Below, in pieces: positions 5,450 through 55,241 of a stretch of 64,000 bases of DNA. The stretch is taken from assembly GCA_014237925.1 (NCBI GenBank), contig JABACB010000001.1, forward strand, positions 101,459-165,458, written 5' to 3'. The notes under the pieces are model-generated. The model was not told where the DNA came from and did no database searches. It saw only the letters and a program-made list of their open reading frames with translations. The position numbers and the translations under genes were made by a program. How positions within the stretch are numbered: the first letter of the stretch is position 1; each line of letters begins with the position of its first letter. This DNA is from Alphaproteobacteria bacterium (GTDB lineage: Bacteria > Pseudomonadota > Alphaproteobacteria > JABAAW01).

Positions 5450-6985
5450 TCAGACGGGGTTGCGCAGGAACGCCGGCAAGGCTTCCAGCCGCTCCTTGTT
5501 ATTCGAGGGGTTATTCGAGGGGTTGTGCGAGGGGTTATTCGAGGGGTTATTCGAGGGGTTGTGCGAGGGGTTGTTTGAGGGATTGTGCGAGGGGTTGTGC
5601 GAGGGGTTGTTTGAGGGATTGTGCGAGGGATTGTGCGAGGAATTGTGCGGAGACGGCGTGGCAGACGACGCGAGCGACGATGGCGCGGGGGAAGAGCTTG
5701 GAGTTCCACTTCTGCCTCTGCTTCTTCCTCGATCTCTCTGTCTTCCGTCCTCCCTTCCGTTCTCCCTTCTGTCCTCCCTTCTGTCCTCCCTTCTGTCCTC
5801 CCTTCTGTCCTCCCTTCTGTCCTCCTTTGCGTCCTCCCTTCCGTTCTCCCTTCTGTCCTCCTTTGCGTTCGCGCCTTCGGAGGCGACGCCTTCGATACGA
5901 TCCAGCATGCCGATGCGTTCCAGCAACACTCTGTCCTCTTCGCTGACATAGGTGAGCGCGATGCCGCGCAGTCCTGCGCGTCCCGTGCGTCCGATGCGGT
6001 GGACATAGTTGTCGCGCGTCAGGGGCACATCGAAGTTGACGACGCAGTCGACGGCTTCGATATCCAAGCCGCGCGCAGCCACATCGGAGCAGACGAGCGT
6101 GCGCAGCGCACCGCTGCGAAAACGTTCCAGCTCTGCAATGCGCAAGGGTTGCGGCATGTCGCCGTGCAGCTGTCCTACGGCTTGGACACGCTGTTGCGAA
6201 AGCCATCGGGCAACTTCGCGCACGCGCAGACGGCGATTGCAAAACACCAGCACGGAGCTGTGCTTCGAAAGCTCTTTTTGCAACAATGCCATCTTTGCTT
6301 TTTCGCCGACGACCGTCAAAAAGCTTTCTTCGACCGTATCGGCGCTGCGGCGTTGCGGAGAGAGATCGATATGCTTCGCTGCCGTCGTGAAGCGTTTGAC
6401 CAGGCGCGCGACCGCATCGTCCAAGGTGGCGCTCATCAGGATCGTTTGGCGGCGAGGGGGCAGCAACGCGCAGATCCGCTCGACATCGGGGATGAAGCCC
6501 ATATCCAGCATGCGATCCGCCTCGTCGATCACCAACACCGTGATGGCGTTGAAAAGAAGCTTGCCGCGTTCGTGCAAGTCCAGCAGCCTGCCGGGCGTTG
6601 CGATCACGACATCGGGGGCACGCGAAAGCGCACGAATCTGCTCTCCCATCGTCATGCCGCCGATCAGCAGCGTGTGGCGGATCCCCAAGTCCGCCGAGAA
6701 GGTTTCGGTCACTTTCGCCGTTTGCATCGCAAGCTCGCGCGTCGGATTCAGCACCAGCGCACGCGGAAGCGCCGCGCGCTGTCTGCCGTGTGTAAGAATG
6801 TCGAGCAGGGGCAAAACGAAGGCGGCGGTCTTGCCTGTCCCCGTTTGCGCGATCCCGACCACGTCGCGGTTCATCAGCACATTCGGAATCGCTTGCTCCT
6901 GAATCGGGGTCGGGTGAGAAAATCCTGCCTGCACAACCTGTTGCAGAAGCTTTTCGCTCAAGCCGAGCGCGGAAAAATCATTCAT
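5450..6985 (-). CDS. DEAD-box ATP-dependent RNA helicase (RhlE-like) with a long repeat-encoded C-terminal tail
   Basis: Q-motif/motif I (FSHPTPIQEQAIP, AQTGTGKTAAF), VIDEADRMLDMGF, SAT, and HRIGRTGRAG. The start was chosen at MNDFSALGL; the track ORF extends to 7033 from a GTG. Confidence 0.9.
   Translation of the reverse strand: MNDFSALGLSEKLLQQVVQAGFSHPTPIQEQAIPNVLMNRDVVGIAQTGTGKTAAFVLPLLDILTHGRQRAALPRALVLNPTRELAMQTAKVTETFSADLGIRHTLLIGGMTMGEQIRALSRAPDVVIATPGRLLDLHERGKLLFNAITVLVIDEADRMLDMGFIPDVERICALLPPRRQTILMSATLDDAVARLVKRFTTAAKHIDLSPQRRSADTVEESFLTVVGEKAKMALLQKELSKHSSVLVFCNRRLRVREVARWLSQQRVQAVGQLHGDMPQPLRIAELERFRSGALRTLVCSDVAARGLDIEAVDCVVNFDVPLTRDNYVHRIGRTGRAGLRGIALTYVSEEDRVLLERIGMLDRIEGVASEGANAKEDRRENGREDAKEDRREDRREDRREDRREDRRENGREDGRQRDRGRSRGRSGTPSSSPAPSSLASSATPSPHNSSHNPSHNPSNNPSHNPSHNPSNNPSHNPSNNPSNNPSHNPSNNPSNNKERLEALPAFLRNPV
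5498..5866. repeat. In-frame arrays in the helicase tail: 12-nt unit (H/N)NPS x~12 (5498-5647) and 15-nt unit EDRRE x~6 (5741-5866)
   Basis: Coordinates derived from the track protein. The DNA shows ggggtt(a/g)t(t/g)cga and tcctcccttctgtcc units. Confidence 0.85.
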
Positions 6986-7214: not shown

Positions 7215-8480
7215 ATGGAGAAACCGACCAGCAAGCAACAGAGCGACAAGCAGAAGGCGCTCGCCTCCGCGTTGGACGAGATCGAGCGCAGCTTCGGTAA
7301 GGGTTCGATCATGCGTTTGGGACATCAGGAGGTCGAGGGTATCGAATCCATCTCGACAGGATCGCTCGGCTTGGACATCGCCTTGGGCGTAGGCGGCTTG
7401 CCGCGCGGACGCATCATCGAGATCTACGGACCAGAATCCTCAGGAAAAACAACCCTTGCCCTCCAAGTCATCGCCGAGGCGCAGCGAAAGGGGGGGCAGT
7501 GCGCCTTCTTGGATGCCGAGCATGCACTCGATCCGTCCTATGCCAAGAAGCTCGGCATCAACCTCGACGCGCTGCTCATCTCGCAGCCAGACGCAGGAGA
7601 GCAGGCGTTGGAAATCGCCGACACCCTCGTGCGTTCCAGCGCGATCGATGTACTCGTCGTCGATTCGGTCGCAGCTCTCGTGCCGCGCGCAGAACTCGAA
7701 GGCGACATGGGAGACACCCATGTAGGCTTGCACGCAAGACTCATGAGCCAAGCGCTCCGAAAACTCACAGGATCGGTTGCACGCTCGCGCACGATGGTCG
7801 TCTTCATCAACCAGATCCGCATGAAGATCGGCGTCATGTTCGGTAATCCGGAGACGACAACAGGAGGAAACGCTTTGAAATTCTATTCGAGCGTGCGCCT
7901 CGATATTCGACGCATCGGCGCGGTCAAGGACAAGGATGTCATCGTCGGAAATCAGACGCGAGTCAAGGTTGTCAAGAACAAGGTGGCACCACCGTTTCGA
8001 GTCGTCGAGTTCGACATCATGTACGACGAAGGAATTTCTAAGAGCGGTGAAATCCTCGACCTCGGCGTCAGCGCAGGAATCATCGAAAAATCAGGCGCAT
8101 GGTATGCATACGACAAGCAACGCATCGCGCAGGGACGCGAGAACGCGCGTACGTGGTTGCGTGCCAATGCGGCGAGCGCGCGTGCCATCGAAAACAAAAT
8201 CCGCGAAAAAGAGGGGCTGCTTTCGGAGGTCATGCTGGAGGCTCCTTCGCCGCCTCCCGTCGCGGTAGAAGATGTCGCGCCTGCTGCTCCTGCTCCTCTC
8301 GCTTCGCCTCCCTCTGCACCTCCTCCCTCTGCTCCTCCTCCCTCTGCCCCTCCTCCCTCTGCTCCTCCTCCCTCTGCTCCTCCTCCCTCTGCACCTCCTC
8401 CCTCTGCTCCTCCTCCTGCACGCGCTGTCCGGCCTGCTGCTGCGCCGCCGCCCATCCCGCCCGTTCGTTCTGCTTATTAG
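7215..8480 (+). CDS. recA: Recombinase RecA with a ~70-aa proline-rich C-terminal extension
   Basis: [18 protein letters not shown], Walker [13 protein letters not shown], and the canonical L1/L2 region ([28 protein letters not shown]). The tail is PPPSA x7. Confidence 0.97.
8307..8417. repeat. 15-nt in-frame array (PPPSA x7) inside the recA 3' end
   Basis: Coordinates computed from the protein position (aa 365-401). Confidence 0.9.
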
Positions 8481-8600
8481 CTTGTCGTGATTAGCTTGTC
8501 GTGATTAGCTTGTCGTGATTAGCTTGTCTCTAGATTCTTTTGTTCGATTTTTCTTGCTTTACTTTTCTTGCTTTATTTTTCTTGCTTTATTTTTCTTGCG
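8477..8600. repeat. Intergenic arrays: 14-nt unit ttagcttgtcgtga x3.5 (8477-8530) and ~15-nt unit ttttcttgctttat x3.5 (~8546-8600)
   Basis: Read directly in the sequence. The first array starts inside the recA stop codon, and each unit carries TAG and TGA. Confidence 0.85.
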
Positions 8601-9324
8601 CCCTGAGTCGGTCGCGCTCAAGAGCCAGCAAACGCAGGAATTGTCCCACACCCTGCTTGCTGACGATGTCCGTCATCTCACGCCGCTTGCCTGCGATCAC
8701 GCTCACATTGCGAAAGATCACATCGATGATTCCCATGCGGGTCGTCCCCCCTCCGTTGTCAAAACAACGCACGCGCCAAACGACGGGCAGAGCCTCATTC
8801 TCGTCCTCGACGCTCACCGCAATGCTGACCGCGAAATCTTTGCCCAGCCGCGACACTTTCGACAATTCGTAGTCGACAACAGAAAGGTTGTAGATAGCGT
8901 TGCTGACCGTGCTTTCCAAAATCGAAGAGATGAGCAGAGCGTATTCCTCGCGTTGTGAAGGCGACATCTTGCGCCAGTAAGGCCCAATCAAGCTGCGCGC
9001 CACGGTATCGTAGGCGAAGGTTTGACGCAGGATCTCCTTGTAGGCTTGCAGCTGCGTTTTCCTCGATGCTTTCTCTGCCGTCGCTTTTTGCTGTTGCTGG
9101 ATTTCTTTCAACAAGGCGCGCGCCTTGTCGTCGGTGAAGACGCGTGCCTGCACAATGCTGCAGGCATCGCTGCGCTTGAGCCCCTTGCCGCCGCTCTGGC
9201 TCTGCGCTGCGGGTGCGAGCGCAAGCGCGAAGCAGAAAGCAACGACAGCACCGGCTCCCGCCCTCACGCTGCCGTCGGCGAGAAGCCGAAAGCGAGCGGA
9301 CACCCTTGTCTTTGTCCGTCGCAT
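8587..9324 (-). CDS. MlaC/Ttg2D-family periplasmic lipid-binding protein (paralog 1)
   Basis: Signal peptide, then the family core: FAYDTVARSLIGPYWRKMSPSQREEY ... VVWRVR ... IIDVIFRNVSVIAGKRREM. Confidence 0.7.
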   Translation of the reverse strand: MRRTKTRVSARFRLLADGSVRAGAGAVVAFCFALALAPAAQSQSGGKGLKRSDACSIVQARVFTDDKARALLKEIQQQQKATAEKASRKTQLQAYKEILRQTFAYDTVARSLIGPYWRKMSPSQREEYALLISSILESTVSNAIYNLSVVDYELSKVSRLGKDFAVSIAVSVEDENEALPVVWRVRCFDNGGGTTRMGIIDVIFRNVSVIAGKRREMTDIVSKQGVGQFLRLLALERDRLRAQEK

Positions 9325-9329
9325 TTTCG

Positions 9330-10016
9330 TCAGTTCTTGTCGAATTCCCGTTTGATTTTTTCCAGCCGTTCGTCGAGCCTGTCGAGAAAGATAGGAATAC
9401 CCTGCTCTGTCAGCACGGCGGTAACCTCGCTGCGTTGCGCGCCAATCATACTAAGCCCGCGGAAATGCATGTCGATCAGGGCGGGGCTGTCGTCGGAGCG
9501 GAAGCGCACGCGCCAATGCATCGTCAACGAATCAGAGCTGCGTGCGGCTTGCGTCTGCGTTTCTACCAGCACATCCTTGCCGAGCAACCTTGCCGAGAGC
9601 ACATCGAACTTCGAAAGGTTAAAAGTGCTCAGAATGTTCGCCGAATACAGCACCACCCATTGCATCGATGCCTTCTGATAACGCTCGCGTTGCGGCTCGT
9701 TCATCTTGCGCCAGTAAGGTCCCACGATGGCGCGCATCATGGTTGTGAGGTCGAAATGCTCTTCCACGATGGCTTTCAGCTTGAGCCGCTTTTCTCGTTT
9801 CGGCATGCTGTCGTTCGCCATGATCGCTGCCATCGCCGTGCCGTTTCGCGTGATGAATTGTAGCGCACGCTCCGTCTTTTGCGCCTCGTTGAGCGCCGCC
9901 GCCGCCTCGCCTCGCGTGCTTGCTAGGGGAAGCAAGAGGAGGCTCACCAGCGCTATGCTTGCAAGCACAAAGCCTCTTTTCGTATTCGGCTTCGTATTGG
10001 CTGAGGTCATCGTCAT
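9330..10016 (-). CDS. MlaC/Ttg2D-family periplasmic lipid-binding protein (paralog 2)
   Basis: Signal peptide, then the same core pattern: FDLTTMMRAIVGPYWRKMNEPQRERY ... MHWRVRF ... LIDMHFRGLSMIGAQRSEV. Confidence 0.7.
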   Translation of the reverse strand: MTMTSANTKPNTKRGFVLASIALVSLLLLPLASTRGEAAAALNEAQKTERALQFITRNGTAMAAIMANDSMPKREKRLKLKAIVEEHFDLTTMMRAIVGPYWRKMNEPQRERYQKASMQWVVLYSANILSTFNLSKFDVLSARLLGKDVLVETQTQAARSSDSLTMHWRVRFRSDDSPALIDMHFRGLSMIGAQRSEVTAVLTEQGIPIFLDRLDERLEKIKREFDKN

Positions 10017-10451: not shown

Positions 10452-11478
10452 GGGAGTGCATGCTATGGGCTCTCGCTTGCCGAGTCAAGTTTCCGCCTCG
10501 ACACCGTCGGCGCGCAAGAACGGCGCGAGATGTCGTGCCAATCTTGAGCGGTGCTCTCTGCTGCGGCGCGATCTTCCGCCTGCGGTCATGGCGATCGTGA
10601 ATCTCACCCCCGATTCCTTTTCGGGAGACGGCTTGCTGTCTGCAGGCGAGGGGGACGGCAAGGCACGCCTGTTGCGCGCTGCCGAGCGCGCCTTGCGCGC
10701 GGGTGCGGATTGGCTGGATGTGGGCGCGCAAAGCACGCGCCCGGGTGCAGTCCCTCTTTCAAGGGAGGAAGAACGCGCGCGTCTGTTGCCTTCGCTGGAG
10801 GATTTGTTGCGCGTATTTCCCGAAGCCTTAGTTTCGGTCGACACGAGCAAGGCGGACTTGGCTCTCGAAGCCGTTCGTTTGGGCGCGCATATGATCAACG
10901 ATGTCTCAGGCGAAGAACGCCCCGCCTTGTGGCGCGAGCTTGGCGAACAAGAAGGTGCTGAGGACGAAGAGCGGGGGTGGGTGGTGTTGATGCATCATGC
11001 GAGCAGCCGTCTGCATCGCGGATCGCTGCGCGAAGGCGGCCATTCGTGGCAGCCGCAAGAAGAGGCTGCATCCGACTTGCCTGTCGTTCTTGCGCGCTTG
11101 AGCGCGCTCGCGCAAGCTTGCGTGGAGGCAGGCGTGCGGCGTGAAAAAATCGTGCTGGACCCGGGCTTGGGATTCGGCAAGACTTTGGAACAAAACCTCA
11201 CCCTGTTGCGCTCGTGGTCTACCATCGACGCGCTCGGGTTTCCTACGATGTTGGGCGCGTCGCGCAAGTCTTTCTTGGGCAAGCTGCTTGCGCGAGGCGA
11301 CGAGGTTTGCGCCCCGTCCGAGCGTTTGGAGGGCAGCTTGGCCGCCGCCGCCGCCGCCATGACAGGAGGCGTACGCATCTTGCGCGTACACGATGTTGCC
11401 GAGACCGTACGCTTCGTACGCGCCTTCTATCCTATCTCTTGTGAAGACCGCACGGGCTGTCTGACGGGCTGTCCGTAG
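10420..11478 (+). CDS. folP: Dihydropteroate synthase FolP (the true start is probably the Met at 10450 or 10465)
   Basis: AIVNLTPDSFSGDG, DVGAQSTRPGA, MINDVSG, DPGLGFGKT and GASRKSFLG. Has a small acidic insertion (GEQEGAEDEERG). Confidence 0.88.
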   Translation: MLWKACFAAFMGVHAMGSRLPSQVSASTPSARKNGARCRANLERCSLLRRDLPPAVMAIVNLTPDSFSGDGLLSAGEGDGKARLLRAAERALRAGADWLDVGAQSTRPGAVPLSREEERARLLPSLEDLLRVFPEALVSVDTSKADLALEAVRLGAHMINDVSGEERPALWRELGEQEGAEDEERGWVVLMHHASSRLHRGSLREGGHSWQPQEEAASDLPVVLARLSALAQACVEAGVRREKIVLDPGLGFGKTLEQNLTLLRSWSTIDALGFPTMLGASRKSFLGKLLARGDEVCAPSERLEGSLAAAAAAMTGGVRILRVHDVAETVRFVRAFYPISCEDRTGCLTGCP

Positions 11479-12626
11479 GCGTCTTTCGTGGGAAGCTCTG
11501 TTTTCTTTTCGGCGCGCCAAATCGATCGCAACGCTTCTCTCAAGTCTTGCAGAGGCACGCGCACAGATTTTTTCTCCTCGTTCTGAGGACGATACCAGTA
11601 GGTCCACCCGTTGCAGCTTGTGCGTCCCTCAAGCTCGGCCGCCCATTGGTGGATGGAGGCGCGGCGTTGCTCGCGGGAAAGCAGTCCCTCGGAGGTGACG
11701 AGCGCTTGATAGCGACGGCACGCGCTTTCCAGCTTTTCGCCGGGCGCAAGAAGTCCGTTTTCCAGCAAGGCGGCGAAGGGAACATCGCGTGCTTGCTCGC
11801 GCGGCTCGGGCAGCAGAAGGCACTCCTGTTCTGGAGAAGGGGGGGGAATGCGTTTCAGTCGTTGCTTGGCGGCGCGCACATAGCGCGCCTCGCGCTCGAT
11901 GCCGATATAGCGACGTCCCAAACGGCGGCAGGCGGCGGGCGTTGTGCCGCTGCCGCAAAAAGGATCCAGCACGACATCGCCTGCGCGCGTGCTGGAGAGC
12001 AAGACGCGGTAGAGCAGGGAGAGGGGCTTTTGAGTCGGATGAACCTTCAGCCCGTCCTTGTCGCGCAGACGCTCCTTGCCGTTGCAGACGGGCAAGTGCC
12101 AGTCGCTGCGCATTTGTTTCTCGCCGTTCAGTTGTTTCAGCGCGCGATAGTTGAAGCGATAGCGTGCGCCGCGTTCTTTCGCGCACCACAACAATGTCTC
12201 GTGCGCGTTCGTAAACCTTCTGCCGTGGAAGTTTGGCATCGGGTTTGTTTTGATCCACAGCACGTCGTTGAGGATCCAAAAGCCCAAGTCTTGCAACAGC
12301 GCGCCCAAGCGATAGATGTTGTGATACGACCCCATGATCCATAGCGTGCCGTCGTCTTTCAGGAGACGACGCGCTTGCGTCAGCCATGCGCGGTTGAAGG
12401 CGTCGTAGTCTTGGAAGCTGGCAAAGCGATCCCAGGGTTCGTCCACGCCACAGACCTTCGATTCGTTGGGGCGATGCAGGGGTTTTTCGAGTTGCAGGAA
12501 GTAGGGGGGGTCGGCGAAGAGAACATCGACGCTTTGTTCGGGAAGGCGTGCCATCGTCGTGATGCAGTTGCCGTGCAGGATGCGGTCGAGGGCTTGCGCG
12601 AGCGCGAGGGGGGAGGGGGATGGCAT
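11427..12626 (-). CDS. ccrM: CcrM-type N6-adenine DNA methyltransferase (GANTC-specific family)
   Basis: Beta-class order with DPPY first (VDVLFADPPYFLQL) and FxGxG later (VLDPFCGSGTT). TNPMPNFHGRRFTNAHETLLW and HPTQKPLSLL are present, plus the C-terminal non-catalytic domain typical of CcrM. Confidence 0.9.
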   Translation of the reverse strand: MPSPSPLALAQALDRILHGNCITTMARLPEQSVDVLFADPPYFLQLEKPLHRPNESKVCGVDEPWDRFASFQDYDAFNRAWLTQARRLLKDDGTLWIMGSYHNIYRLGALLQDLGFWILNDVLWIKTNPMPNFHGRRFTNAHETLLWCAKERGARYRFNYRALKQLNGEKQMRSDWHLPVCNGKERLRDKDGLKVHPTQKPLSLLYRVLLSSTRAGDVVLDPFCGSGTTPAACRRLGRRYIGIEREARYVRAAKQRLKRIPPPSPEQECLLLPEPREQARDVPFAALLENGLLAPGEKLESACRRYQALVTSEGLLSREQRRASIHQWAAELEGRTSCNGWTYWYRPQNEEKKSVRVPLQDLREALRSIWRAEKKTELPTKDAYGQPVRQPVRSSQEIG

Positions 12627-16301: not shown

Positions 16302-16583
16302 TTGGCAGTCTTGTGTAGTGAGGCGAGAATGGTTTTCGGACAAGAAGAGCTGGCGCTGACGCGCGTTCCGTTGGAGATTTGGGCGGAGATCGGTGCAACC
16401 GAGCTGCGCGTCGGCAACCTTCTGCAAATCGGTCGTGGTGCGATCATCTCGCTCGACAAGAGCCTAGAGGGCGAGGTGGACTTGAAAATTGGCAAGCACC
16501 TTGTTGCTCGTGGCAACTTGCTTGCCGACCGCGAGCATTTTTCGGTGCGCATCACCAAGACTTCCAAGGACATTCACGAATAG
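16302..16583 (+). CDS. Stand-alone SpoA-domain protein (FliN / SctQ C-terminal family)
   Basis: VPLEIWAEIGATELRVGNLLQIGRGAIISLDKSLEGEVDLKIGKHLVARGNLLADREHFSVRITK matches the FliN/YscQ SpoA pattern. No other flagellar or T3SS gene is nearby. Confidence 0.7.
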   Translation: MAVLCSEARMVFGQEELALTRVPLEIWAEIGATELRVGNLLQIGRGAIISLDKSLEGEVDLKIGKHLVARGNLLADREHFSVRITKTSKDIHE

Positions 16584-16885
16584 GGACACGACACGAGAGA
16601 CACGACACGAGGGACATGACAAAAGGGGCATGACAAAAGGGGCATGACAAAAGGGGCATGACAAAAACGCGACACCTCGCCTCGTGTCAAGCCGCGATAA
16701 GCTGCCAAGCCAAGAGAGGCAAGCTAGTAGAGGGCAAGCCAAGATGGCAAAGCCCAAGCGGGTAAGCTAATAGCGGGCAGTCTAATAGAGGGCAAGCTAG
16801 TAGAGGGCAAACTAATAGAGAACAAGCCAAGATGGCAAAGCCCAAGCGGGCAAGCCAAGAGAGGGCAAGCTAATAGCGGGCAAGC
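16584..16885. repeat. Non-coding repeat field: 14-nt unit (g)gggcatgacaaaa x~5 (16584-16668), then ~15-nt units gggcaagc(t/c)a(a/g)tag(a/c)g with a ~96-nt higher-order repeat (16703-16885)
   Basis: Read directly in the sequence. The units carry in-line TAATAG/TAGTAG double stops. Confidence 0.85.
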
Positions 16886-16925
16886 CATTCGTTATAAGCA
16901 AGCTATAGCGTTTCAGTGCATCCCC

Positions 16926-21916: not shown

Positions 21917-24900
21917 CTATCGCAAGAATCGCTGCTGGTAGAGATCGAGGAAGCCGAGGTTGGTGTCCTCGCCTTCTTGCAGTCGTTCGAGCAATGTTGC
22001 AACGGAGACGGGCTGTCGGGGGTCGTTGAGCTGTGTGAGGAAGTTGAAGACTTCGAGCAGGGGGGAGCCCTCGATCGTTTCGCCGTAGTCGCGCGCGATT
22101 CCGTCGAGCGCGTTCGTCTCGTCGGCGAGGTAGAGGGAGGCGGCAAGGTAGAGGAGGAAGCTGGCTTTGCGTTGCGAGAGCTTGACCCCTTCTTGTCGCG
22201 GCGGCGGTCCGAGCAGTCGTTGCAAGGCGGAGGCGGCTTTTCCCCACTCGGCGTTGGTGCGGTGGATCAGGAAGCGTAGCAGGTCGGCAGATTCGGAGAT
22301 GTCGCCCGCCAGCAACTCGATCGCGTAGTCCTGCTGCCCCAGCGCGACGAGCGCACGCGCACGCAGCCTGCGCGCGTCGTCGCGGTACGGCGAGCCCTCG
22401 TTCGGGATGTTGCGGTTGAGAATGGACAAGGCTTCCTGCGCCTGTTCTGCCAAGAGTAGCAAGAGCCCTGTCTTGACGACGAGCCTGTCCTTGTCGCTAG
22501 AGGGGTCGCTAGAGGCGTTGTTTTCGACGAAGGCTTTTTTTGCGATGTCGGCGGCGATCTTGTAGAAGCTACCCTGACTGATGCGCCCGACCGCGCTTTC
22601 GCTCAACAACAATCCCAGCTCTCCGGGCGGGATCAGCTCCTTGAAGTCCTCGTGAAGAAGGTAGGCTTCGACGGGTGAAAGCGTCGCCGCCTCGCGCAAC
22701 AAGAAGAGATCTTGGAACAAATCGACCATCTGTTGCGAAAGCTCTGTCGTATCGGGCAGAAGAGGATGACGGGTGATCGCTTCGCGGTAGGCGCGCAGCT
22801 GCTGGTAGTAGAGCCCGTTGTATCCGTAGGTGTTGCCGAGCTCGCGGCGCACGCGAAAGGCGAGCGCATCGCCGCGCCATGCGTTGCTAAGGCGTTCGAG
22901 CTGTTCGAGAATCGCTTCGTTCGCCAGAAGCTCGTTCGTTCGAGCGAGAACGAGAGCATCGAGGGCGGCGCGTACTTGCCAGTAGCCGCGCTGCCGCGCG
23001 TTTTGCATGTCTTGCCAAATCGCCAAGGCACGGCGATCGTTGCCTCTCAATTGTGCCAACCAGCCGCGCAGGTATTCGAAGGCATGAAGGTCGGCGCGTC
23101 GGAGCTCTTGGAGCGGCAAGCGTTCGGCACGGCGTAGCCACGCGCCGGCAATCGAGCTGTCGTCGCTGTTCAGGGCGCTGAGAACTCTCCAGACGCTGAC
23201 AAAGGCTTTGATGCTAGGCGGGTAGAGGTCGTAGAAGTTGCCGGCTTGTGCAAAATAGCTTTCGGCTAGCGACCACTGTTGCTTTTGCGCCGCCGCCACA
23301 CCGCGCCAAAGGTAGGCTTCTTGAAGCCTGTCGAAGACGGGGGCACGCAGGAGCTCGATCGCTTCGTCCGTCCTCTCGGAGAGCAGCAGCGCGAGCGCAC
23401 GCATCAAACGCGGCGTCAAGTTGTTCGAAGGAAAGGATTGCTCGTACAGGTTCAGCAGCCCGATCGCTTCTTGTCCCAGTCCGTGGCTCAGATAGTATCC
23501 GGCGAGGGTCAGGTTGAAGCCGCGACGGCTTGCAGACTGGTCGCGCAGGTAGCGCGCGTTGAACTTTTTGCGCACAGAATCGTACGGAATGTCTCGGCGC
23601 TCCCAAAGGCTGAAGTTCAACACCGGCAGACGGAGAAGCTCGGTCGACGCACGTTCGGCAACCGCGCGGTCTACATCCAATGTCTCCAGCCTCAGCCCTT
23701 GAGGCGCCGTGACGGTGACATGTCCGTCCTTGGGTTGCACCAGCAGATCGCTTGCCAAAGGTACTAGGGCGATACCTTGTGCGCTCTCCAAAATCTGAAA
23801 TTCGGGATAGGCGCGCGCTCGCGCCATGCCGAGGCTGGGGGTCGGCACGGGAATGACATGGAAGATATCGCCGATCTCCGGATCTTCGATCAACGCGATC
23901 TTGCCGTAGCGGTTCAGAAGGAAGTTGAACTCGGCTTGCGCTTGGGCATCTTGAGTGATGGCGGTATCGATGGCGAAGTAGGGGGGGACGGGCTGGTCGT
24001 GGAACTCCAGCCACCATCCTAGTCCGACGCGTCTGAGCGCGGGGTAGAGAAGTTGCGTCGAGGAGAAGCGCAAGACCGTGAAGCCTTCCACCTCGAACTG
24101 CTCGATGTCGCCGAGCGCGTTTTGAGCATTTTGCGGGGCGTTTTGCGGAATGCTTTGCGGAATGTCTCGCGGAATATCTTGCGGAATGTCTTGCGGAATA
24201 TTTTGCGGAATATTTTGCGGAATGCTTTGCGTCTTTTGCTGAAGGTCGAAGGAGAAGGCTTTGTCGGCGACAAACCATATGTATCCCGCGCGTTGGAAGA
24301 AGGCGGTGGCGATGCCCTCAGGCAGGAGGAGTTGGAACTGATAGACGGGAATAGGTCTTGTGGCTGCAATCTGTGCGGGGCTAGGCTGCATCTCGCCGGG
24401 CGCAGCACCTGAGGGCGCGAAGATGCGCGGCGGCGGCAAAGGGGCTGTCGTCAGTCGCAACGCTGACGAGACGCCGATGATGTCGGGCAAGGGCGGCACT
24501 TCAATATCGATGACATGGAAGACATCCAACACGACCCGCGTTCCCGATACGAAGTGTCGATAGCGGTTGTCTTGGCGCAGAGGAATCGAAAACAACGCCC
24601 GATCGGCGAAACGTTGCGTGCGCGCGGGCGAGAAGATGCCGCGTTGTGCGAGTCCGAGCGTGCGTAAGTCGAGAGGGTTCGAGCGGTTGAAGGTTGCAAC
24701 GAGCCGTTGCCCTTGTTTCTCGATGAGGTAGTTCGTAGGCTTTTCGTAGTCGAAGATGAAACGCGTGTAGTCGCCGTGGCGCCCCGCGCGCACGCTGACG
24801 GCGGGCAGGCTGGGGGTTGCAGGAGCGTCCGTGGGCGTTGTTGCTGCGTCGCGTTGCGCAAGGCTGCCGTCGCGCGCGAAAAGATCGATCACAACGCGGT

Positions 24901-25714
24901 TGCCGTAGGCGAAATCGCGCATCGAGAGCTTGCGTTTGAGCGGAAAACGCACTTCGAGCCCGTCGCGCACGAAGACGGGTGCACCCAGCGATCGCGCGAT
25001 CGGTCTCAGGCGCGCCGCCGCGTTGGCGACGACGAAAGGTTTGTTGAACTCGACGACGAGAAGGTCGCGCTCTTCTCCGTCTTCTTCGCTTTTCGGCTCG
25101 GCGATGATGCGCGCGCGAAACAGCACATCGCTCGGCCAAGCGAAGGAGAGACGGTCGTAGCCCGCGCGGCGTTCGCCGTTCAAGGCGACGCGAAAAGGGG
25201 TTGCTTGTCGCTCGTCGCCTTCAGAGAAAGCCCTCTGCGGAATGTTGTCGGTGCGCTCGACATTGACGCTTTGTCCAGGAATCGCGTTCGTATCGGGGTC
25301 GCTTTGGAAATAGACAACGATGTTTTCCTTCGTGCGCCGCGTCGAGACGAGCACATTGGGTTTCAAGGCAAGGACGATGCGCCTTGTATCGAGCGCACGC
25401 AAGCTCACGATGTAGCGTGAAAGCTTCTGTTGTGCCGTCCCGAACTCGAAACGTCGCGCCGCTTGGCTGAAGGTGAGGCGAAGGTTCTGCTGCTCGTCGA
25501 TTTGGCTCGAGAAGCTCGGCACTTCCTGCCAGCGGAAAATGAGATAGCCCGCGTCGCGTGCAAGTCCGCTTTCCACTTCGACGACGCGTTGCGCGTGCGC
25601 CGCTTGGATGCTGCTCTGCCCCCAAGCCCCCAAGCAGAGGCAACACAAAAGCATCGCCGCGCGATCCCTGAGACAGGCGAGGCTTCGGCGCTTGGGCTCG
25701 TTGTTCGTCGTCAC
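21917..25714 (-). CDS. Giant (1265 aa) secreted protein: three N-terminal beta-rich AMIN-like repeats plus a long TPR/helical-repeat C-terminal half; last gene of the cheY operon
   Basis: Signal peptide (MLLCCLCLGAWGQSSIQAAHA). Repeated modules are seeded by GYLIFRW / GYDRLSFAW / GDYTRFIFDY. The C-terminal ~600 aa is helical-repeat-like (LAGYYLSHGLGQEAIGLL, EAYLWRGVAAAQ, ARALVALGQQDYAIELL). Its start overlaps the upstream gene by 4 nt. Confidence 0.55.
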   Translation of the reverse strand: MTTNNEPKRRSLACLRDRAAMLLCCLCLGAWGQSSIQAAHAQRVVEVESGLARDAGYLIFRWQEVPSFSSQIDEQQNLRLTFSQAARRFEFGTAQQKLSRYIVSLRALDTRRIVLALKPNVLVSTRRTKENIVVYFQSDPDTNAIPGQSVNVERTDNIPQRAFSEGDERQATPFRVALNGERRAGYDRLSFAWPSDVLFRARIIAEPKSEEDGEERDLLVVEFNKPFVVANAAARLRPIARSLGAPVFVRDGLEVRFPLKRKLSMRDFAYGNRVVIDLFARDGSLAQRDAATTPTDAPATPSLPAVSVRAGRHGDYTRFIFDYEKPTNYLIEKQGQRLVATFNRSNPLDLRTLGLAQRGIFSPARTQRFADRALFSIPLRQDNRYRHFVSGTRVVLDVFHVIDIEVPPLPDIIGVSSALRLTTAPLPPPRIFAPSGAAPGEMQPSPAQIAATRPIPVYQFQLLLPEGIATAFFQRAGYIWFVADKAFSFDLQQKTQSIPQNIPQNIPQDIPQDIPRDIPQSIPQNAPQNAQNALGDIEQFEVEGFTVLRFSSTQLLYPALRRVGLGWWLEFHDQPVPPYFAIDTAITQDAQAQAEFNFLLNRYGKIALIEDPEIGDIFHVIPVPTPSLGMARARAYPEFQILESAQGIALVPLASDLLVQPKDGHVTVTAPQGLRLETLDVDRAVAERASTELLRLPVLNFSLWERRDIPYDSVRKKFNARYLRDQSASRRGFNLTLAGYYLSHGLGQEAIGLLNLYEQSFPSNNLTPRLMRALALLLSERTDEAIELLRAPVFDRLQEAYLWRGVAAAQKQQWSLAESYFAQAGNFYDLYPPSIKAFVSVWRVLSALNSDDSSIAGAWLRRAERLPLQELRRADLHAFEYLRGWLAQLRGNDRRALAIWQDMQNARQRGYWQVRAALDALVLARTNELLANEAILEQLERLSNAWRGDALAFRVRRELGNTYGYNGLYYQQLRAYREAITRHPLLPDTTELSQQMVDLFQDLFLLREAATLSPVEAYLLHEDFKELIPPGELGLLLSESAVGRISQGSFYKIAADIAKKAFVENNASSDPSSDKDRLVVKTGLLLLLAEQAQEALSILNRNIPNEGSPYRDDARRLRARALVALGQQDYAIELLAGDISESADLLRFLIHRTNAEWGKAASALQRLLGPPPRQEGVKLSQRKASFLLYLAASLYLADETNALDGIARDYGETIEGSPLLEVFNFLTQLNDPRQPVSVATLLERLQEGEDTNLGFLDLYQQRFLR

Positions 25715-26490
25715 CTTTTCTCGTCGTAGATGACGATATCGACACGGCGCGCAAGCCTGTTGCGCACCTCCGGGCTGAGCGAGCGAGAGATGTTGCTATC
25801 GAAGGAGGTGCTGGAGCGTCCCATCGCCGTGATCGGCACCCGCACTCCGTTCGTCTGCAGGACGCGCAAAACCTCCAGCGCGCGCGCGAGCGAAAGGTGC
25901 CAGTTGCTAGGAAAGCGGCGCGGCGCATTGACGAAGTTGTCGGGGGTCGAATGACCGATCACCTCGATGCGGTTCGCCGTGTTCTTCAGAAGATCGGCGA
26001 GAGAGAAAAGAGTCATCTTCGCGTCCTCGTCGAGCCTGCTGTCGCCTTGTTCAAAAAAAACGCTTGATGGAAAACTCATCATCACCCACCCAGGACCCTG
26101 CGTAAGAAACGAACGCTGCATCATCGGATCGCTTTCGAACTGGCGCTCCAGAATGCGATGAAGGTATTGGGCAGAAAGAGAAAGCGGCGTTTTGCGCACA
26201 TCCGTACTGTAGATATAGTCCGATTTGCCGAAACGCAGATCCTTGCGTTCGCTGATAATGCGTTTCTCGATCCTGATCTCGTCGACATTCAGAAAAACGC
26301 TTTGCGCAAAAAGAAAAACGAAAAAGGTCAGCATCAAAGTGACCATGTCCGTCATGCTCAGAAGCCATTGCGTGTTCTTTCCACTTTCCTGTTCCTTCTC
26401 CTCCTCCTCCTCTACCAACTCCGATTCATCTTCTCCTTCGGCGAGGTCGTCGAAGGGATTGGCATCGAACGGGGAGGTGTTGGCGCTCAC
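25711..26490 (-). CDS. MotB-like protein (N-terminal TM with conserved Asp plus an OmpA-type peptidoglycan-binding domain)
   Basis: WLLSMTDMVTLMLTFFVFLF aligns with MotB (AYADFMTAMMAFF), including the Asp. The OmpA-like C-domain is FFEQGDSRLDEDAKMTLFSLADLL...IEVIGHSTPD...SNWHLSLARALEVLRVL. Confidence 0.7.
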   Translation of the reverse strand: MSANTSPFDANPFDDLAEGEDESELVEEEEEKEQESGKNTQWLLSMTDMVTLMLTFFVFLFAQSVFLNVDEIRIEKRIISERKDLRFGKSDYIYSTDVRKTPLSLSAQYLHRILERQFESDPMMQRSFLTQGPGWVMMSFPSSVFFEQGDSRLDEDAKMTLFSLADLLKNTANRIEVIGHSTPDNFVNAPRRFPSNWHLSLARALEVLRVLQTNGVRVPITAMGRSSTSFDSNISRSLSPEVRNRLARRVDIVIYDEKR

Positions 26491-27383
26491 GGTTGCGTTT
26501 GTTGCGACGGCGTTTGTTGCGACGGCGTTTGCTGCGACGGCGTTTGCTGCGACGGCGTTTGCTGCGACGGCGTTTGTTGCGACGGCGTTTGTTGCGACGG
26601 CGTTTGTTGCGACGGCGTTTGTTGCTGTCCTCCCGTTTCTACTTGCACTCCGTTATCAGGGGATGTTTCTGTCAAGGCTTCGGGGTGGTCTTCGATGTTG
26701 GGAAGGTAGAGGACATTGGGAAAGCTCTCCTCGCCGATTTGGAACTGGAAGACGGTTTCTCCTTTCAGGGTCGTGTCGAGCCCTGATTGTACGCGATCGG
26801 GACTGATCCCTTCTTGCAAGGCGAGTCTTCCGAGCTCGCCCGCGCGGCGCACGCTGAGGGGGGGGCTGAAGATATAGGTGTCGCGCGTGTCGTAGCCTGT
26901 CACGAAGGAGGTGTAGATGGGCTGCGCGCTGTTGGCGATCGTCGACGAGATGCGTTGCAGCAAGATCAGCATTTCGGGCTTGATCTCGGCGCTATCCGAT
27001 TGAAAGAGTGCCTTGTTGAGCACTCTCACTTCCAGCGATCCGTCGCGGTCGTTGCGTTTCGTGCGCGCCACATGGATTCCTGTGTCGACGAGCAGTTCGA
27101 TCTCTTCGAGGATGAAGTCTTTGGTGAACCCTGCGGAGCGTCGTTTCAAGGGGTTGAAAATCTCCTTGCTCTTGATGGTCGAAGGCGAGAACACTTTGGC
27201 GACCGAAGAGAGGGCTTGCTCGACGCGCTCTTCCACCACCTCGGAGAGGACGGTGAGCACGACAAAGAACGACAGGACGAGCAGGAAGAGGCTTAGGAAG
27301 GTGTAGGCGATGGCGAAATCGCTCTCCTCGTCGTTGCCCGAAGATTTTCCGGAGGCGCTGTGTTCTCGGTGGTGGCTGAGCAT
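26487..27383 (-). CDS. Divergent MotB/OmpA-like membrane protein (no Asp at the MotB proton-binding position in my alignment by eye), with a TPSQQ x8 tail
   Basis: N-terminal TM FAIAYTFLSLFLLVLSFFVVL. Degenerate OmpA-like segment LFQSDSAEIKPEMLILLQRIS...FVTGYDTRD...LSVRRAGELGRLAL. Has 4-nt overlaps with both neighbours. Confidence 0.45.
   Translation of the reverse strand: MLSHHREHSASGKSSGNDEESDFAIAYTFLSLFLLVLSFFVVLTVLSEVVEERVEQALSSVAKVFSPSTIKSKEIFNPLKRRSAGFTKDFILEEIELLVDTGIHVARTKRNDRDGSLEVRVLNKALFQSDSAEIKPEMLILLQRISSTIANSAQPIYTSFVTGYDTRDTYIFSPPLSVRRAGELGRLALQEGISPDRVQSGLDTTLKGETVFQFQIGEESFPNVLYLPNIEDHPEALTETSPDNGVQVETGGQQQTPSQQTPSQQTPSQQTPSQQTPSQQTPSQQTPSQQTPSQQTQP
26499..26618. repeat. 15-nt in-frame array (TPSQQ x8) at the 3' end of the MotB-like gene
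   Basis: cgacggcgtttg(t/c)tg units were read in the DNA. Coordinates come from the protein. Confidence 0.9.
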
Positions 27384-27420
27384 GGCGTCAAGGGGCTGCG
27401 GTCGTTTTCAAGGGCTGCGC

Positions 27421-28047
27421 TCAGGCGTCGAAGATGTTGTCGATTTCCGCTTGTTTGTCCTTGACGATGATGTTTTGCGGACCGCTGAGCGTCTTCTTGC
27501 CGGAGGTCTTTTCTTTCGTGCGCCGTGCGGCGATCTCCTTGTAGCGACGCTGGGCGTTCTTGTCGCCCATCGCTGATAGGATGCCATCGACGGCGAATTC
27601 GATCGCTTCCACCGAATCGACGATGCGCGTCATCTGCTGTCCGGTCAGGTCTTGGAAGGCGCACGCCTGTACGATCAAGGTGAGCTCTTTGCGGATGAGT
27701 TGTTCCATCTTTTCGTCCAGCATGCCGAGCAATCCTTGAATGTTTTCGGTCGCGTTCATGATCGCGTGCGTCGCCGATTCTGCCGTCGAGCGGATCGAAC
27801 TGAGGTTTTGTACGATCGTAGGCAAGTGTTTCTCGCTGATGTCGCGGGGTTGCTCGGCTGTCATGGCGGCGGCGAGGTCTTCGTTGTGCCCTTCCTGCTG
27901 CTCGCGCAGGCTTTTCAGCGTGTGTCCTCCGTATTGTCCGGGGAGGTCGCTCTCCAAGATGTCTTTCAGAACGGATTCGATCAGAGAGCGTTGCTCCTTC
28001 TCCAAGCCTGGAGGGGGAGCCATGCCGCTGGGGAGTTTCTTGGTCAT
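27421..28047 (-). CDS. cheZ: CheZ-family CheY-P phosphatase
   Basis: Active-site helix ACAFQDLTGQQMTRIV (compare the E. coli QDLTGQ with its catalytic Gln). The C-terminal amphipathic peptide AEIDNIFDA resembles the CheY-binding tail. The start abuts the cheY stop. Confidence 0.75.
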   Translation of the reverse strand: MTKKLPSGMAPPPGLEKEQRSLIESVLKDILESDLPGQYGGHTLKSLREQQEGHNEDLAAAMTAEQPRDISEKHLPTIVQNLSSIRSTAESATHAIMNATENIQGLLGMLDEKMEQLIRKELTLIVQACAFQDLTGQQMTRIVDSVEAIEFAVDGILSAMGDKNAQRRYKEIAARRTKEKTSGKKTLSGPQNIIVKDKQAEIDNIFDA

Positions 28048-28425
28048 CTAGCCCAACACGCTGCCGAGCTTCGAGCGCAGCGTGTCCGCGCTGAAAGGCT
28101 TGACGATGTAGTTGGTGACGCCCGCCTCCTTCGCGGCTTGGACGCTCGATTGCTTGCTTTCCGCGGTCACCATGATGAACGGAACATGAGTGTTCGCCGT
28201 ACTGCCGGAGCGAACGGCTTTCAGGAAATCCAATCCGTTCATGGGCTCCATGTTCCAATCCGAGATCACAAGTCCGTAGCGCTTCGAGGACATGCGCTCC
28301 AAGGCTTCGCTACCGTCGCCTGCGTCGTCGACATCGTCGAACCCCAGCTGCGCCAAAAGGTTGCGGATGATCCGCACCATCGTCCTGTAGTCGTCTACGA
28401 CGAGAATCGGAGTCTTCGTGTCCAT
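28048..28425 (-). CDS. cheY: Single-domain response regulator CheY
   Basis: ILVVDD, LVISDWNMPxMxG (ISDWNMEPMNG), MVTAE, and KPF at the end. The start was chosen at MDTKTPILVVDD, because the track ORF's 27-aa SL-rich extension comes from an upstream repeat. Confidence 0.92.
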   Translation of the reverse strand: MDTKTPILVVDDYRTMVRIIRNLLAQLGFDDVDDAGDGSEALERMSSKRYGLVISDWNMEPMNGLDFLKAVRSGSTANTHVPFIMVTAESKQSSVQAAKEAGVTNYIVKPFSADTLRSKLGSVLG

Positions 28426-28430
28426 GAATA

Positions 28431-28601
28431 AAGAGGATAAGGACAAAGAGGATAAGGACAAGGAGGATAAGGACGAAGAGGATAAGGACAAAGAGAACAA
28501 AAACAAGGCGGCACTAGCGTAAGGAACACTTCGTTTCTATCCGCTTCGTTTCTATTCGTTTCGTTTCTATCCGCTTCGTTTCTATCCGCTTCGTTTCTAT
28601 C
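28431..28601. repeat. Two 15-nt arrays in the cheY leader/promoter region: aagaggataaggaca x4.3 (28431-28495) and cttcgtttctatccg x5 (28529-28601)
   Basis: Read directly in the sequence, immediately upstream (minus-strand sense) of the cheY start. Confidence 0.9.
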
Positions 28602-28750
28602 AAGGTTGCTTCTCTCCCGATTCACCGAGCCCCCAACATACCATATTCTGTCATTCGTGTCATCCTCTTTTGTCAAGCGACTCTTGTCAAGGGGGTTTTT
28701 GGAGGGAGATAAGCAGAGGGAGCCAAGTAGAGAGAGATAAGCAGAGGGAG

Positions 28751-42300: not shown

Positions 42301-42326
42301 TGCCGCGCGTTCGGCTCGTCAAAACC

Positions 42327-42434
42327 TGGAAACAAGCAGAAGCCTGGAGGCAGGCGGAAGCCTGGAAGCAGGCGGAAGCCTGGAAGCAGGCGGAAGCCTG
42401 GAGGCAGGCGGAAGCCTGGAGGCAGGCGGAAGCG
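42327..42434. repeat. 18-nt x6 intergenic array (gcaggcggaagcctggag) ending at the smc ribosome-binding site
   Basis: Coordinates derived from the shadow ORF 41979-42467, which reads (WK/RQAEA)x6. The last, degenerate unit supplies GGAGG just upstream of the smc start. Confidence 0.9.
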
Positions 42435-50754: not shown

Positions 50755-51387
50755 ATGAAGACCGCCATGCACGAAAGCGACCCTCCCACAGAAGGCAGCA
50801 TCTATCGACCGATCGGCGAGGTTGCAGCCTTGTTGTGCTTAAAAACCCATGTGCTCCGCTTTTGGGAAACGAAGTTCAAGCAGATCGCTCCCCTCAAGCG
50901 CAGCGGCGGCAGACGCTACTATCGACGCGAGGACGTACGCCTGCTCTTCCAAATCCGAGACCTGCTCTATGTCGAAGGCTACACCCTTCGAGGCGCGCAA
51001 AAAGTGTTGCGCGCGCGAGCGCGACCACCAAACGCAGACAAAAAAACCGAGCAGCCCCAAAAGAACAATCAAGAGGAAAACCAAGGGGGAGACCAAGGGG
51101 GAGACCAAGGAAAAGACCAAGGGAGAGACGAAGAGAAAAACACTCCAACCGCGCAATTACAACCCATCAGCGATGCCGTGCGCGCCGATCTGCGACGCAT
51201 CACACAGAGACTGGAACAAACTCTGGCTACCTGCTCTCGAAAGGACGCCGAAGGAAAAACTCTCGACGAACACGAACAGGAAAACGAACAAGATGCCAGC
51301 GAACAAGAGGCAAGCGAACAAGCGACGGACAGAGAAACGACGCACGAACAAGCGACGGACAAAGACGCGAGCTCAGGAGAGCAGTAG
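50755..51387 (+). CDS. MerR-family regulator (the ihfA-linked alphaproteobacterial type) with a ~130-aa low-complexity tail
   Basis: HTH core [69 protein letters not shown]. The tail contains NQGGDQG and EQATD repeats. Confidence 0.8.
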
Positions 51388-52209: not shown

Positions 52210-52225
52210 GCGTTGCTTGCGTCTC

Positions 52226-54777: not shown

Positions 54778-55241
54778 CTTGTCGCCTCGACGCCGAGCGG
54801 ATTGTCCGCGAGGAACCTGTCGAGCGCCGCCACTGCTTCAAGGGTTTCGTCGAAAGGCGAGCAAGCGCAGAAGTTGACAACAAGCCTGCCGTTCGGCGTC
54901 GCAGAAGCGTAGAGCGGCAACGACAAACCCTCCTCTCCCCCCTCTCTATTGGATTTGCGGGCGCGGACGTACTCGTCCAGCTTTCGCGCTTGCATCAACA
55001 GCTCCGCCGTATCGCGTGTAGCCTCCTCGCAAACCAGGCGCATCAGGGTTGCCTCGCCCCCTTCCCCCGCCCCGCGCCCCGCCTCGCGCCCCGCCCCGCG
55101 CCCCCCCATCGCCTCGCCTCTTGCCTCCTCCTCGTGCAAGACGAGGCTGCCGTGCGGCGGAAGATGAAATCCCATAGCACCCTCCGTATCCTCGGTGGGG
55201 CTTCCCTTCAACGCCTCCAGCCATCGTTCCCTGTCGATCAC
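54774..55241 (-). CDS. Acidic hypothetical protein embedded in the T3SS operon (possibly a gatekeeper chaperone or TyeA-like partner; unassigned)
   Basis: Has 4-nt ATGA overlaps with both sctW and sctD. No motif was recognised. Confidence 0.35.
   Translation of the reverse strand: MIDRERWLEALKGSPTEDTEGAMGFHLPPHGSLVLHEEEARGEAMGGRGAGREAGRGAGEGGEATLMRLVCEEATRDTAELLMQARKLDEYVRARKSNREGGEEGLSLPLYASATPNGRLVVNFCACSPFDETLEAVAALDRFLADNPLGVEATR

Follow-up and report, generated by a model that had tools for sequence, protein, structure and literature searches.

A cheY-cheZ-motB'-motB-scaffold gene block in a reduced-genome lineage of Alphaproteobacteria, probably detached from the fliL motor operon

Introduction

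In Caulobacter, deletion of CC_2058, which encodes the secreted tetratricopeptide repeat (TPR) protein FssB, leaves a filament that is still made and a flagellum that is paralysed, and stator activity was found to need this protein (PMC7885107). A comparable case is known from Cereibacter sphaeroides, where the Fla2 operon runs fliL-pflI-motE-motA-motK. MotK, the product of its last gene, is periplasmic; for its AMIN-like N-terminus, as for CC_2058, the AmiC structure 4bin served as template, and the rest of the protein is TPR-like. It binds MotE and MotB2, depends on MotA2 and MotB2 for its localisation and, when lost, leaves assembled flagella paralysed (PMC10954123). Large periplasmic genes after motA or motE were reported from Paracoccaceae, Roseobacteraceae and Caulobacteraceae, and CC_2058 was proposed to be a distant homologue of MotK (PMC10954123). 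On a wider scale MotC, MotK, CC_2058, PflA and FlcB have been classed as TPR partners of the E-ring family MotE/CC_2059/FlgY/FlbB (PMC13023049; 10.1101/2025.02.19.638559). In the present study a stretch of 64,000 nucleotides from an alphaproteobacterium of the lineage JABAAW01 (assembly GCA_014237925.1, contig JABACB010000001.1, positions 101,459 to 165,458), hereafter the window, was analysed with regard to five packed minus-strand genes: cheY, cheZ, two genes for MotB-like proteins of 298 aa (MotB-like-1, here MotB') and 259 aa (MotB-like-2, here MotB), and a gene for a giant protein of 1265 aa.

We regard it as quite probable that the five genes represent the half farthest from the promoter in the fliL motor operon of Alphaproteobacteria (fliL-fliM-pflI-motE-cheY-cheZ-motB'-motB-scaffold), a half which was cut loose in a lineage with reduced genomes and now lies between mrp and aspS. 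The reading is carried by what was observed: which genes are present, the architecture of their domains, their synteny and the purifying selection on them. Because its position and its architecture match, the giant protein was assigned to the MotK/FssB/PflA class of stator scaffolds, and by the same slot and architecture we infer orthology to CC_2058 or MotK. A preliminary description of the locus, made from the sequence alone, had suggested a motility-linked periplasmic scaffold or stator-anchoring complex with a logic like that of PflA/PflB, which is borne out by homologues in flagellar clusters after fliL-fliM-pflI-motE. It had also recognised no described system in the trio of motB', motB and giant gene, a point that had to be given up, as slot and architecture fit FssB/CC_2058 (PMC7885107) and MotK (PMC10954123). 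The scaffold class, characterised genetically in 2021-2024, is therefore already known and the cluster is mostly ordinary; new here are a MotB paralogue without the essential Asp, a graded series of insertions between motE and the scaffold gene, and the detachment of the block in one lineage.

Size of the giant family and gene order in relatives

A word-index search returned 14 homologues of the giant protein, and a profile search of 1.84 billion cluster representatives returned 6608 matches at E<=1e-3. Those at E<=1e-30 (3103) are nearly all 1050-1350 aa in length and align end-to-end, mostly over the full length, so that the family is large despite its rare look in the word search. Named carriers are Xanthobacteraceae, Hyphomicrobiales, Rhizomicrobium, Defluviicoccus, Novispirillum, Pelagibius, Denitrobaculum and Rhodovibrionaceae, and the database names are 'tetratricopeptide repeat protein', 'hypothetical protein' and, once, 'LapB'. 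Neither a Caulobacter nor a Cereibacter entry stood among the matches listed, which in the wide profile search were proteins of soil metagenome-assembled genomes (MAGs), and a tblastn search with the giant protein against 72,556 plasmids gave no match.

Within the lineage of the window the five-gene order was kept in all eight loci (the window, L001-L003, L007/8, L010 and L011), down to about 60% amino-acid identity, always between mrp and aspS and apart from other flagellar genes. More distant relatives display the same unit in a different setting. In L005/L006, Denitrobaculum tricleocarpae (L092), Pelagibius marinus (L093) and Rhodovibrionaceae A322 (L095), four lineages altogether, the exact five-gene unit of the window is embedded in a flagellar cluster of the order fliL-fliM-DUF6468-motE-cheY-cheZ-motB'-motB-giant. 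Kept in eight loci of its own lineage and in four distant lineages, the five-gene order is not a chance arrangement. Shorter versions occur as well, namely motE-cheY-cheZ-giant in Novispirillum sp. DQ9 (L094) and the marine MAG L097, and motE-cheY-giant in Defluviicoccus (L096). The shortest was found in L004 and L009 (22-23% identity over the aligned length), where the order is flgH-flgA-flgG-flgF <> fliL-fliM-DUF6468-(motE-like)-giant and fliP, flgB/C, fliE, fliQ, fliR and flhB are among the further genes after the giant gene.

A metagenome census of 80 loci, which comprises the Xanthobacteraceae-type clade only and is biased towards it, points to the same slot. Among the 55 loci with at least 1 kb of known upstream sequence a motE-like gene was present within 1.5 kb upstream of the giant gene in 38 and further upstream in five more; in these 43 informative loci, as in L004 and L009, the giant gene follows fliL-fliM-DUF6468-motE-like. 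FliM was present in 33 of the 40 loci having at least 3.2 kb upstream, and a MotB or CheZ gene lay within reach in none of the 80. In the remaining 12 of the 55 informative loci (L019, L020, L024, L032, L035, L038/L039, L045, L048, L056, L070 and L072) no flagellar gene could be recognised on the upstream side of the giant gene, and several of them have fliP downstream. Altogether, more than 50 loci have a homologue in the fliL operon at the slot after motE; in the window itself the block is detached. The motE-like proteins of relatives match the spirochaete collar protein FlbB weakly, and DUF6468 would by its position be pflI, judged from the published gene order (PMC10954123).

As a side observation, in the Xanthobacteraceae-type clade (L012-L091; also, for example, L004 13588-13824) the giant gene is almost always followed by a conserved open reading frame (ORF) of about 78-110 aa without a Pfam family, and fliP is often found farther on. 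This ORF, too, may be an overlooked gene associated with the motor.

Architecture of the giant protein

The N-terminus carries a Sec-type signal (MLLCCLCLGAWGQSSIQAAHA before Q, with an AXA site, at about 25580-25654, read from the sequence), which is the same with either start, be it the GTG used here or Met21 (25654) of the deposited annotation (P0001, 1245 aa); the latter would turn the overlap with motB into a 57-nt gap. The protein is predicted to be exported to the periplasm and to have no membrane anchor.

AlphaFold models were built on an alignment of eight sequences. The N-terminal half (pLDDT, the predicted local distance difference test score, 65 overall and 70-90 inside domains) was modelled as three beta modules, after which comes another domain rich in beta strands. 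Foldseek matched the N-terminal modules to the AMIN region of PilQ (3jc8_Qa, E 7.5e-5) and to the AMIN domain of AmiC (4bin, probability 1.00, root-mean-square deviation 3.7 A over 109 columns), and the AMIN-like Pfam family PF24837 is on record for members of the giant family. The first module is confined to the lineage of the window; distant homologues begin at the second and possess two. The beta-rich domain that follows holds the invariant or nearly invariant family motifs AAxFRR..W.VFD, DPxxGD and FxEFxxLxSxQG, and Foldseek returned no specific PDB match for it. The C-terminal half forms a TPR-like superhelix of 31 helices (pLDDT 85.9, predicted template modelling score 0.73) with a family-invariant WRGD motif. 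Three AMIN-like modules and a helical half, as they had been described from the sequence, are thus upheld by models and Foldseek.

In the Foldseek comparison, which had been proposed earlier, the TPR half resembles long TPR proteins generically, the Campylobacter jejuni motor scaffold chain 9hmf_K standing at rank 27 (E 2.1e-4). Since neither PflA nor PflB is singled out, structural homology of this half to them is not claimed. The sequence profile of the giant protein likewise found only designed or generic TPR proteins in the PDB.

MotB and its paralogue without the essential Asp

The 259-aa protein is, judged by its sequence, a regular but divergent member of the MotB family that corresponds to no curated subtype equivalog. 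Both Pfam families are above their cut-offs (MotB_plug 39.3 bits, cut-off 24; OmpA 46.7 bits, cut-off 27.2), and its profile aligns over the whole length of MotB in the solved stator structure 6ysf (MotAB; E 6e-15), whereas the cut-offs of the curated NCBIfam models for MotB, MotD and MotS are missed (best MotD, 89.6 bits versus 283). Its transmembrane (TM) helix carries an Asp in SMTDMVTLMLTFF, as had been noted before together with the OmpA-type domain. The motif is TDMVTLMLTFF, its T-D being invariant in six orthologues of five lineages (consensus TD(M/L)V.LMLTFF), and the spacing from Asp to FF is presumably that of Escherichia coli MotB (YADFMTAMMAFF, Asp32). The peptidoglycan-binding motif NWHLSLARA has the OmpA-type family form NWxLSxxRA.

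In the preliminary description the absence of MotA beside these genes appeared as an anomaly. None of the plausible ORFs in the 64-kb window matched the MotA_ExbB domain; however, motA was absent within 10 kb at every relative locus examined, cultured genera included, and it is unlinked in the genome loci of Denitrobaculum, Pelagibius and Rhodovibrionaceae too. Since motA is unlinked in every relative examined, its absence at the window locus is normal.

The two MotB-like genes are not equivalent, and only the 259-aa copy is a regular MotB. The 298-aa copy retains the layout of MotB, in which a single TM helix is followed by a further helix and an OmpA-like core. Its profile finds MotB chains as best PDB matches (E about 1e-3), and it aligns in register with the MotB profile over 165 columns (hhalign, probability 68%, E 4.9e-5). 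The column of the Asp is occupied by an invariant Ser in seven orthologues of five lineages, where LSL aligns to T-D-M/L within a TM pattern LSL..L.L[S/A]FF, and the peptidoglycan motif is degenerate (LSVRRAGEL). Its Pfam scores (OmpA 24.4 bits, MotB_plug 18 bits) both lie under the cut-off. Because a Ser stands in place of the proton-binding Asp and Pfam remains below cut-off, MotB' was classed as a remote, non-conducting paralogue and not as MotB. In all five lineages with motB' the gene is situated directly upstream of motB, overlapping or abutting it. In the window MotB' ends in a tail of nine QQTPS units, which derive from a 15-nt tandem repeat at 26495-26625. No study of a MotB paralogue without this Asp was found in the literature.

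An irregular junction was observed in L003 (8464-10001; 1.9-Mb chromosome OZ244186.1), where the motB' frame reads into the MotB TM segment (…LLSMTDMVTLMLTFF) and the motB ORF is shortened. Either a frameshift/fusion or an assembly error is responsible.

CheY, CheZ, gene junctions and constraint

CheY reaches 95 bits with Pfam Response_reg, and its best NCBIfam match is the CheY model with 133.5 bits, under the equivalog cut-off of 189. As far as residues can be read from the sequence, the active-site set and the signalling Tyr of the Tyr106 type appear complete (acidic pair VVDD, phosphorylation site VISDWNM, Thr in MVTAE, Tyr and Lys in YIVKPF). CheZ passes Pfam CheZ (37.3 bits, cut-off 30.7) and misses the equivalog level of NCBIfam CheZ (26.9 versus 257), and is therefore a remote CheZ; its catalytic motif FQDLTGQ is intact and its C-terminus, EIDNIFDA, is acidic or hydrophobic.

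The five ORFs were found at the coordinates given by the preliminary description, packed as it had said: the cheY stop TAG is followed by the ATG of cheZ with no nucleotide between, and cheZ is separated from motB' by 37 nt. The two 4-nt overlaps, motB'/motB and motB/giant, need correction, since both read GTGA and not ATGA. A search for sigma-70-like promoters in 21.5-29 kb gave a single match, upstream of cheY (Table 1), and none inside the five-gene block; as 1.4 sites are expected by chance, the match lends positional support only. The region upstream of cheY is occupied by two 15-nt tandem arrays and one 14-nt array. A regulatory function of the 15-nt repeats was rejected, as similar arrays of 12-18 nt occur across the whole window.

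Purifying selection acts on all five genes. In comparisons with three relatives of about 80% identity, dN/dS (nonsynonymous versus synonymous substitution rates) was 0.08-0.21 for cheY, about 0.18 for cheZ, 0.16-0.25 for motB', 0.12-0.14 for motB and 0.15-0.20 for the giant gene, altogether 0.08-0.25, compared to 0.09-0.14 for aspS and 0.26-0.28 for mrp. As these values lie within the range of the housekeeping genes, the block is regarded as functional, and pseudogenisation was ruled out.

Comparison with described scaffolds

By its published description FssB resembles the giant protein in being secreted, in its AMIN-like N-terminus and TPR region, and in the position of its gene beside the motE-like CC_2059 in the fliL region (PMC7885107, PMC10954123, PMC13023049). 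It differs from the giant protein of the window, which has three AMIN-like modules (relatives have two) and whose gene is detached from fliL-fliM-pflI-motE and preceded by cheY, cheZ and two motB-type genes, none of which is reported beside CC_2058 in the cited papers. MotK shares the periplasmic location, the AMIN-like N-terminus with a TPR-like helical rest, the last place in the operon and the requirement for rotation (PMC10954123). In contrast, MotK has only 652 aa, lacks a large central beta domain and carries just one AMIN domain, and it is motA, not cheY-cheZ-motB'-motB, that stands between motE and motK. CC_2058 itself was reported to lack BLAST similarity to MotK.

PflA-PflB of Campylobacter and Helicobacter and FlcA/FlcB of Borrelia are periplasmic proteins of beta-sandwich-plus-TPR or TPR type, which join the E-ring or collar (FlgY/FlbB, MotE family) to the stators (10.1101/2025.02.19.638559; PMC13023049). 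They belong to distant phyla, however, and show no detectable sequence similarity to the giant protein of the window; PflB is furthermore membrane-anchored, which the latter is predicted not to be. In Sinorhizobium meliloti motB is unlinked from motA and followed by the gene for a periplasmic, TPR-rich MotB partner, MotC, with which MotE acts (PMC10954123, PMC13023049). MotC is much smaller, though, an AMIN domain is not reported for it, and no MotB' is reported there. Accessory periplasmic proteins that stabilise the stator are also present in Vibrio, namely MotX/MotY and FlgT, and MotY has an OmpA-like domain. MotY parallels the role proposed below for MotB', but it lacks a membrane helix and is no paralogue of MotB, and MotX/MotY/FlgT, which act in gammaproteobacterial sodium-driven motors, lack homology to the giant protein.

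Proposed function and alternative explanations

If the block originated from the fliL operon, we suggest the following arrangement, all of whose protein contacts are conjectural. MotB, together with a MotA encoded elsewhere, would form a proton-driven stator. The giant protein would be exported by the Sec route and then attach to peptidoglycan via its AMIN modules, while its TPR superhelix would grip the periplasmic part of MotB and probably also the E-ring spokes formed by MotE; thereby it would recruit stator units round the rotor and keep them active, as has been proposed likewise for FssB, MotK and Campylobacter PflA. With Ser in the position of the MotB Asp, MotB' would be unable to carry protons and would most likely be a structural, membrane-anchored accessory of the stator or of the scaffold. 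CheY and CheZ, presumably made from the same transcript, would deliver and end the chemotactic signal at the switch.

For MotB' a farther-reaching proposal can be made, which we put forward tentatively and with more doubt than confidence. In it, MotB' would be a hitherto unrecognised, dedicated motor component of a Rhodospirillales-like group of Alphaproteobacteria, which has lost the Asp and the canonical peptidoglycan motif and is in every case translationally coupled to motB and a scaffold gene of the FssB/MotK type. It would either enter the MotA pentamer beside MotB, giving a heteromeric stator with one Asp, or anchor the giant scaffold to the inner membrane, and in the symbiont-like lineage the block of stator, scaffold and CheY/CheZ genes would survive as an independent operon.

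Several points weigh against a derivation of the block from the motor operon. Genes of the CC_2058 type are reported to be 2-3 kb long, somewhat shorter than the giant gene, and the match of the TPR half to 9hmf_K is no better than that to unrelated TPR proteins. The giant protein has no NCBIfam match, and its sole Pfam match is a weak one of TPR type (ANAPC3, 21.9 bits, under the cut-off of 27.2). Co-transcription of the five genes is presumed from spacing and the lack of predicted internal promoters only. Besides a FliN-type ORF, the 64-kb window contains no flagellar structural gene, motA, motE or pflI, and the same was found for the flanks of +-10 kb in the eight loci of the lineage. Flagellation of the lineage is presumed, and the window harbours an injectisome-type type III secretion system (T3SS) cluster at 51373-63870, mostly on the minus strand, to which the FliN-type ORF could belong instead.

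Alternatively, flagella could have been lost during genome reduction and CheY, CheZ, MotB, MotB' and the scaffold re-used with an unlinked MotA-like channel, be it for surface or mechanical sensing, for anchoring of the envelope at a host interface or for powering another envelope machine. Such a re-use would agree with the separation of the block from all other flagellar genes in the eight loci of the lineage, with the small genomes (1.9 and 1.73 Mb), with the third AMIN module that relatives do not have, and with the signs of host association, namely the injectisome (SctV 881 bits; SctD, SctW, SctU, SctT), a CesT-type chaperone and a eukaryote-like kinase. We nevertheless consider it unlikely. 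Constraint on all five genes is as strong as on housekeeping genes; MotB has kept its Asp, plug and peptidoglycan motif, CheY its active-site and Tyr106-type residues and CheZ its motif; and a methyl-accepting chemotaxis protein (MCP) and the FliN-type gene are present in the window. To our knowledge there is also no precedent for the re-use of such a block of stator and scaffold.

In another explanation, MotB' and MotB would form a heteromeric B-pair in one MotA pentamer with a single proton-binding Asp, and the giant protein would be specific to that stator instead of being a general scaffold of the FssB/MotK type. The conserved MotB layout of MotB' (TM helix, post-TM helix and OmpA-like core in register) and the place of motB' immediately upstream of motB in all five carrier lineages would fit, tight translational coupling of this kind being typical of subunits of a single complex. 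However, the similarity between MotB' and MotB is weak (E about 1e-3 to 5e-5), and most lineages with the giant family have neither MotB' nor an adjacent MotB (0/80 Xanthobacteraceae-type loci; L094, L096, L097), so that the scaffold is independent of MotB', and we judge this explanation improbable as well. That motB', motB and the giant gene encode a Tol-Pal-like or OmpA-type envelope or division complex, standing merely beside cheY-cheZ, is highly improbable: OmpA-like, AMIN and TPR domains are widespread among systems of the envelope and of division (AmiC, PilQ, LapB) and one homologue bears the name 'LapB' in a database, but homologues beside tol-pal or division genes, which the preliminary description had named as evidence against a motility function, were looked for and neither tolQ, tolR, tolA, tolB, pal nor a division gene was found nearby in about 100 loci, the homologues being embedded in flagellar clusters and the 259-aa protein matching MotB and not TolR or Pal.

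With a derivation from the fliL operon the seemingly orphan MotB of the window is explained without a new system, and a family of thousands of proteins, hitherto named generically or wrongly ('LapB'), receives a functional label. Through the graded series of insertions after motE, in which first cheY, then cheZ and then motB'-motB are added, CheY/CheZ signalling and the stator become physically linked to the gene of the scaffold. Finally, a MotB paralogue without Asp is flagged, which can be tested in cultured Pelagibius and Denitrobaculum.

Neighbourhood of the block in the window

Table 1. Features of the window with their coordinates, counted from its first nucleotide.
Feature	Position	Strand	Remarks
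cheY	28048-28425	minus	125 aa, single-domain response regulator
cheZ	27421-28047	minus	208 aa, phosphatase of phosphorylated CheY
motB' (MotB-like-1)	26487-27383	minus	298 aa, remote MotB paralogue
motB (MotB-like-2)	25711-26490	minus	259 aa, flagellar stator B subunit
Giant protein, predicted periplasmic	21917-25714	minus	1265 aa from GTG
Three AMIN-like beta modules	25304-25582, 24875-25186, 24518-24799	minus	AlphaFold model m321f98d120ee, pLDDT 70-90
Central beta-rich domain of giant protein	23705-24343	minus	conserved family-wide; strands at residues 438-650 from Met21, pLDDT 70-87
C-terminal TPR-like alpha-superhelix of giant protein	21920-23599	minus	560 aa, model me7b307b26c77
Sigma-70-like promoter match	28635-28663	minus	upstream of cheY; sole match in 21.5-29 kb
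FliN-type ORF	16302-16583	plus	93 aa; Pfam FliMN_C 59.4 bits
HpaP-like ORF	52226-53068		
SctD	53065-54777		
SctW gatekeeper	55238-56467		
SctV	56464-58584		TIGR01399 881 bits, above cut-off
SctS/FliQ-type ORF	59941-60228	plus	
SctU	61425-62468		
SctT	62476-63390		
CesT-type chaperone	63391-63870		

Both flanks of the block consist of housekeeping genes, with aspS (convergent), a CitMHS transporter, a zinc-ribbon protein, dus and a Na/H exchanger on one side and mrp/apbC, hflK/C, gtrA and gyrA on the other. The FliN-type ORF is flanked by dus and the zinc-ribbon gene, at a distance of 5.3 kb from the giant gene, so that the earlier statement of no fli gene within about 20 kb needs a small correction. 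With NCBIfam it scores 52.8 bits for fliN (cut-off 84) versus 35 bits for SctQ, under both cut-offs, and it is kept at the equivalent position in the relatives of about 60% identity (L007, L008, L010, L011); possibly it is another scattered flagellar gene. A 97-aa ORF at 16464-16757 was rejected as the FliN gene, since it has no Pfam match and the real FliN-type ORF is on the opposite strand. The MCP (46337-49024, plus strand, 895 aa) stands alone after smc, and cheA, cheW, cheR and cheB are absent from the window.

The injectisome cluster extends past the end of the window and suggests a host-associated organism; genomes of the lineage are small, 1.7-1.9 Mb (chromosome 1.9 Mb, contig 1.73 Mb). 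At 3353-5377 on the minus strand a protein of 674 aa with a eukaryote-type Ser/Thr kinase domain is encoded (Pfam Pkinase 32.5 bits, just over the cut-off), beside a sigma-70-family factor at 1669-2655 that is probably RpoH-like. Two neighbouring MlaC paralogues (8587-10016, minus strand) and a CcrM-type DNA methyltransferase (11427-12626, minus strand; N6_N4_Mtase and RAMA domain), typical of Alphaproteobacteria, were also detected.

Short tandem-repeat arrays with a period of 12-18 nt and 3-12 copies number about 28 in the 64 kb, both intergenic and in frame within genes (for example 2713-2833, 5498-5861, 8284-8599, 16582-16887, 24129-24231, 26495-26625, 28430-28601, 42325-42433, 46449-46982 and 52812-53167). 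Inside genes they encode the nine QQTPS units of motB' and eight IPQN/IPQD units in the giant gene, and dus and the zinc-ribbon gene contain runs of Ser/Arg and Pro-rich type; the abundance of the arrays appears to be a genome-wide trait.

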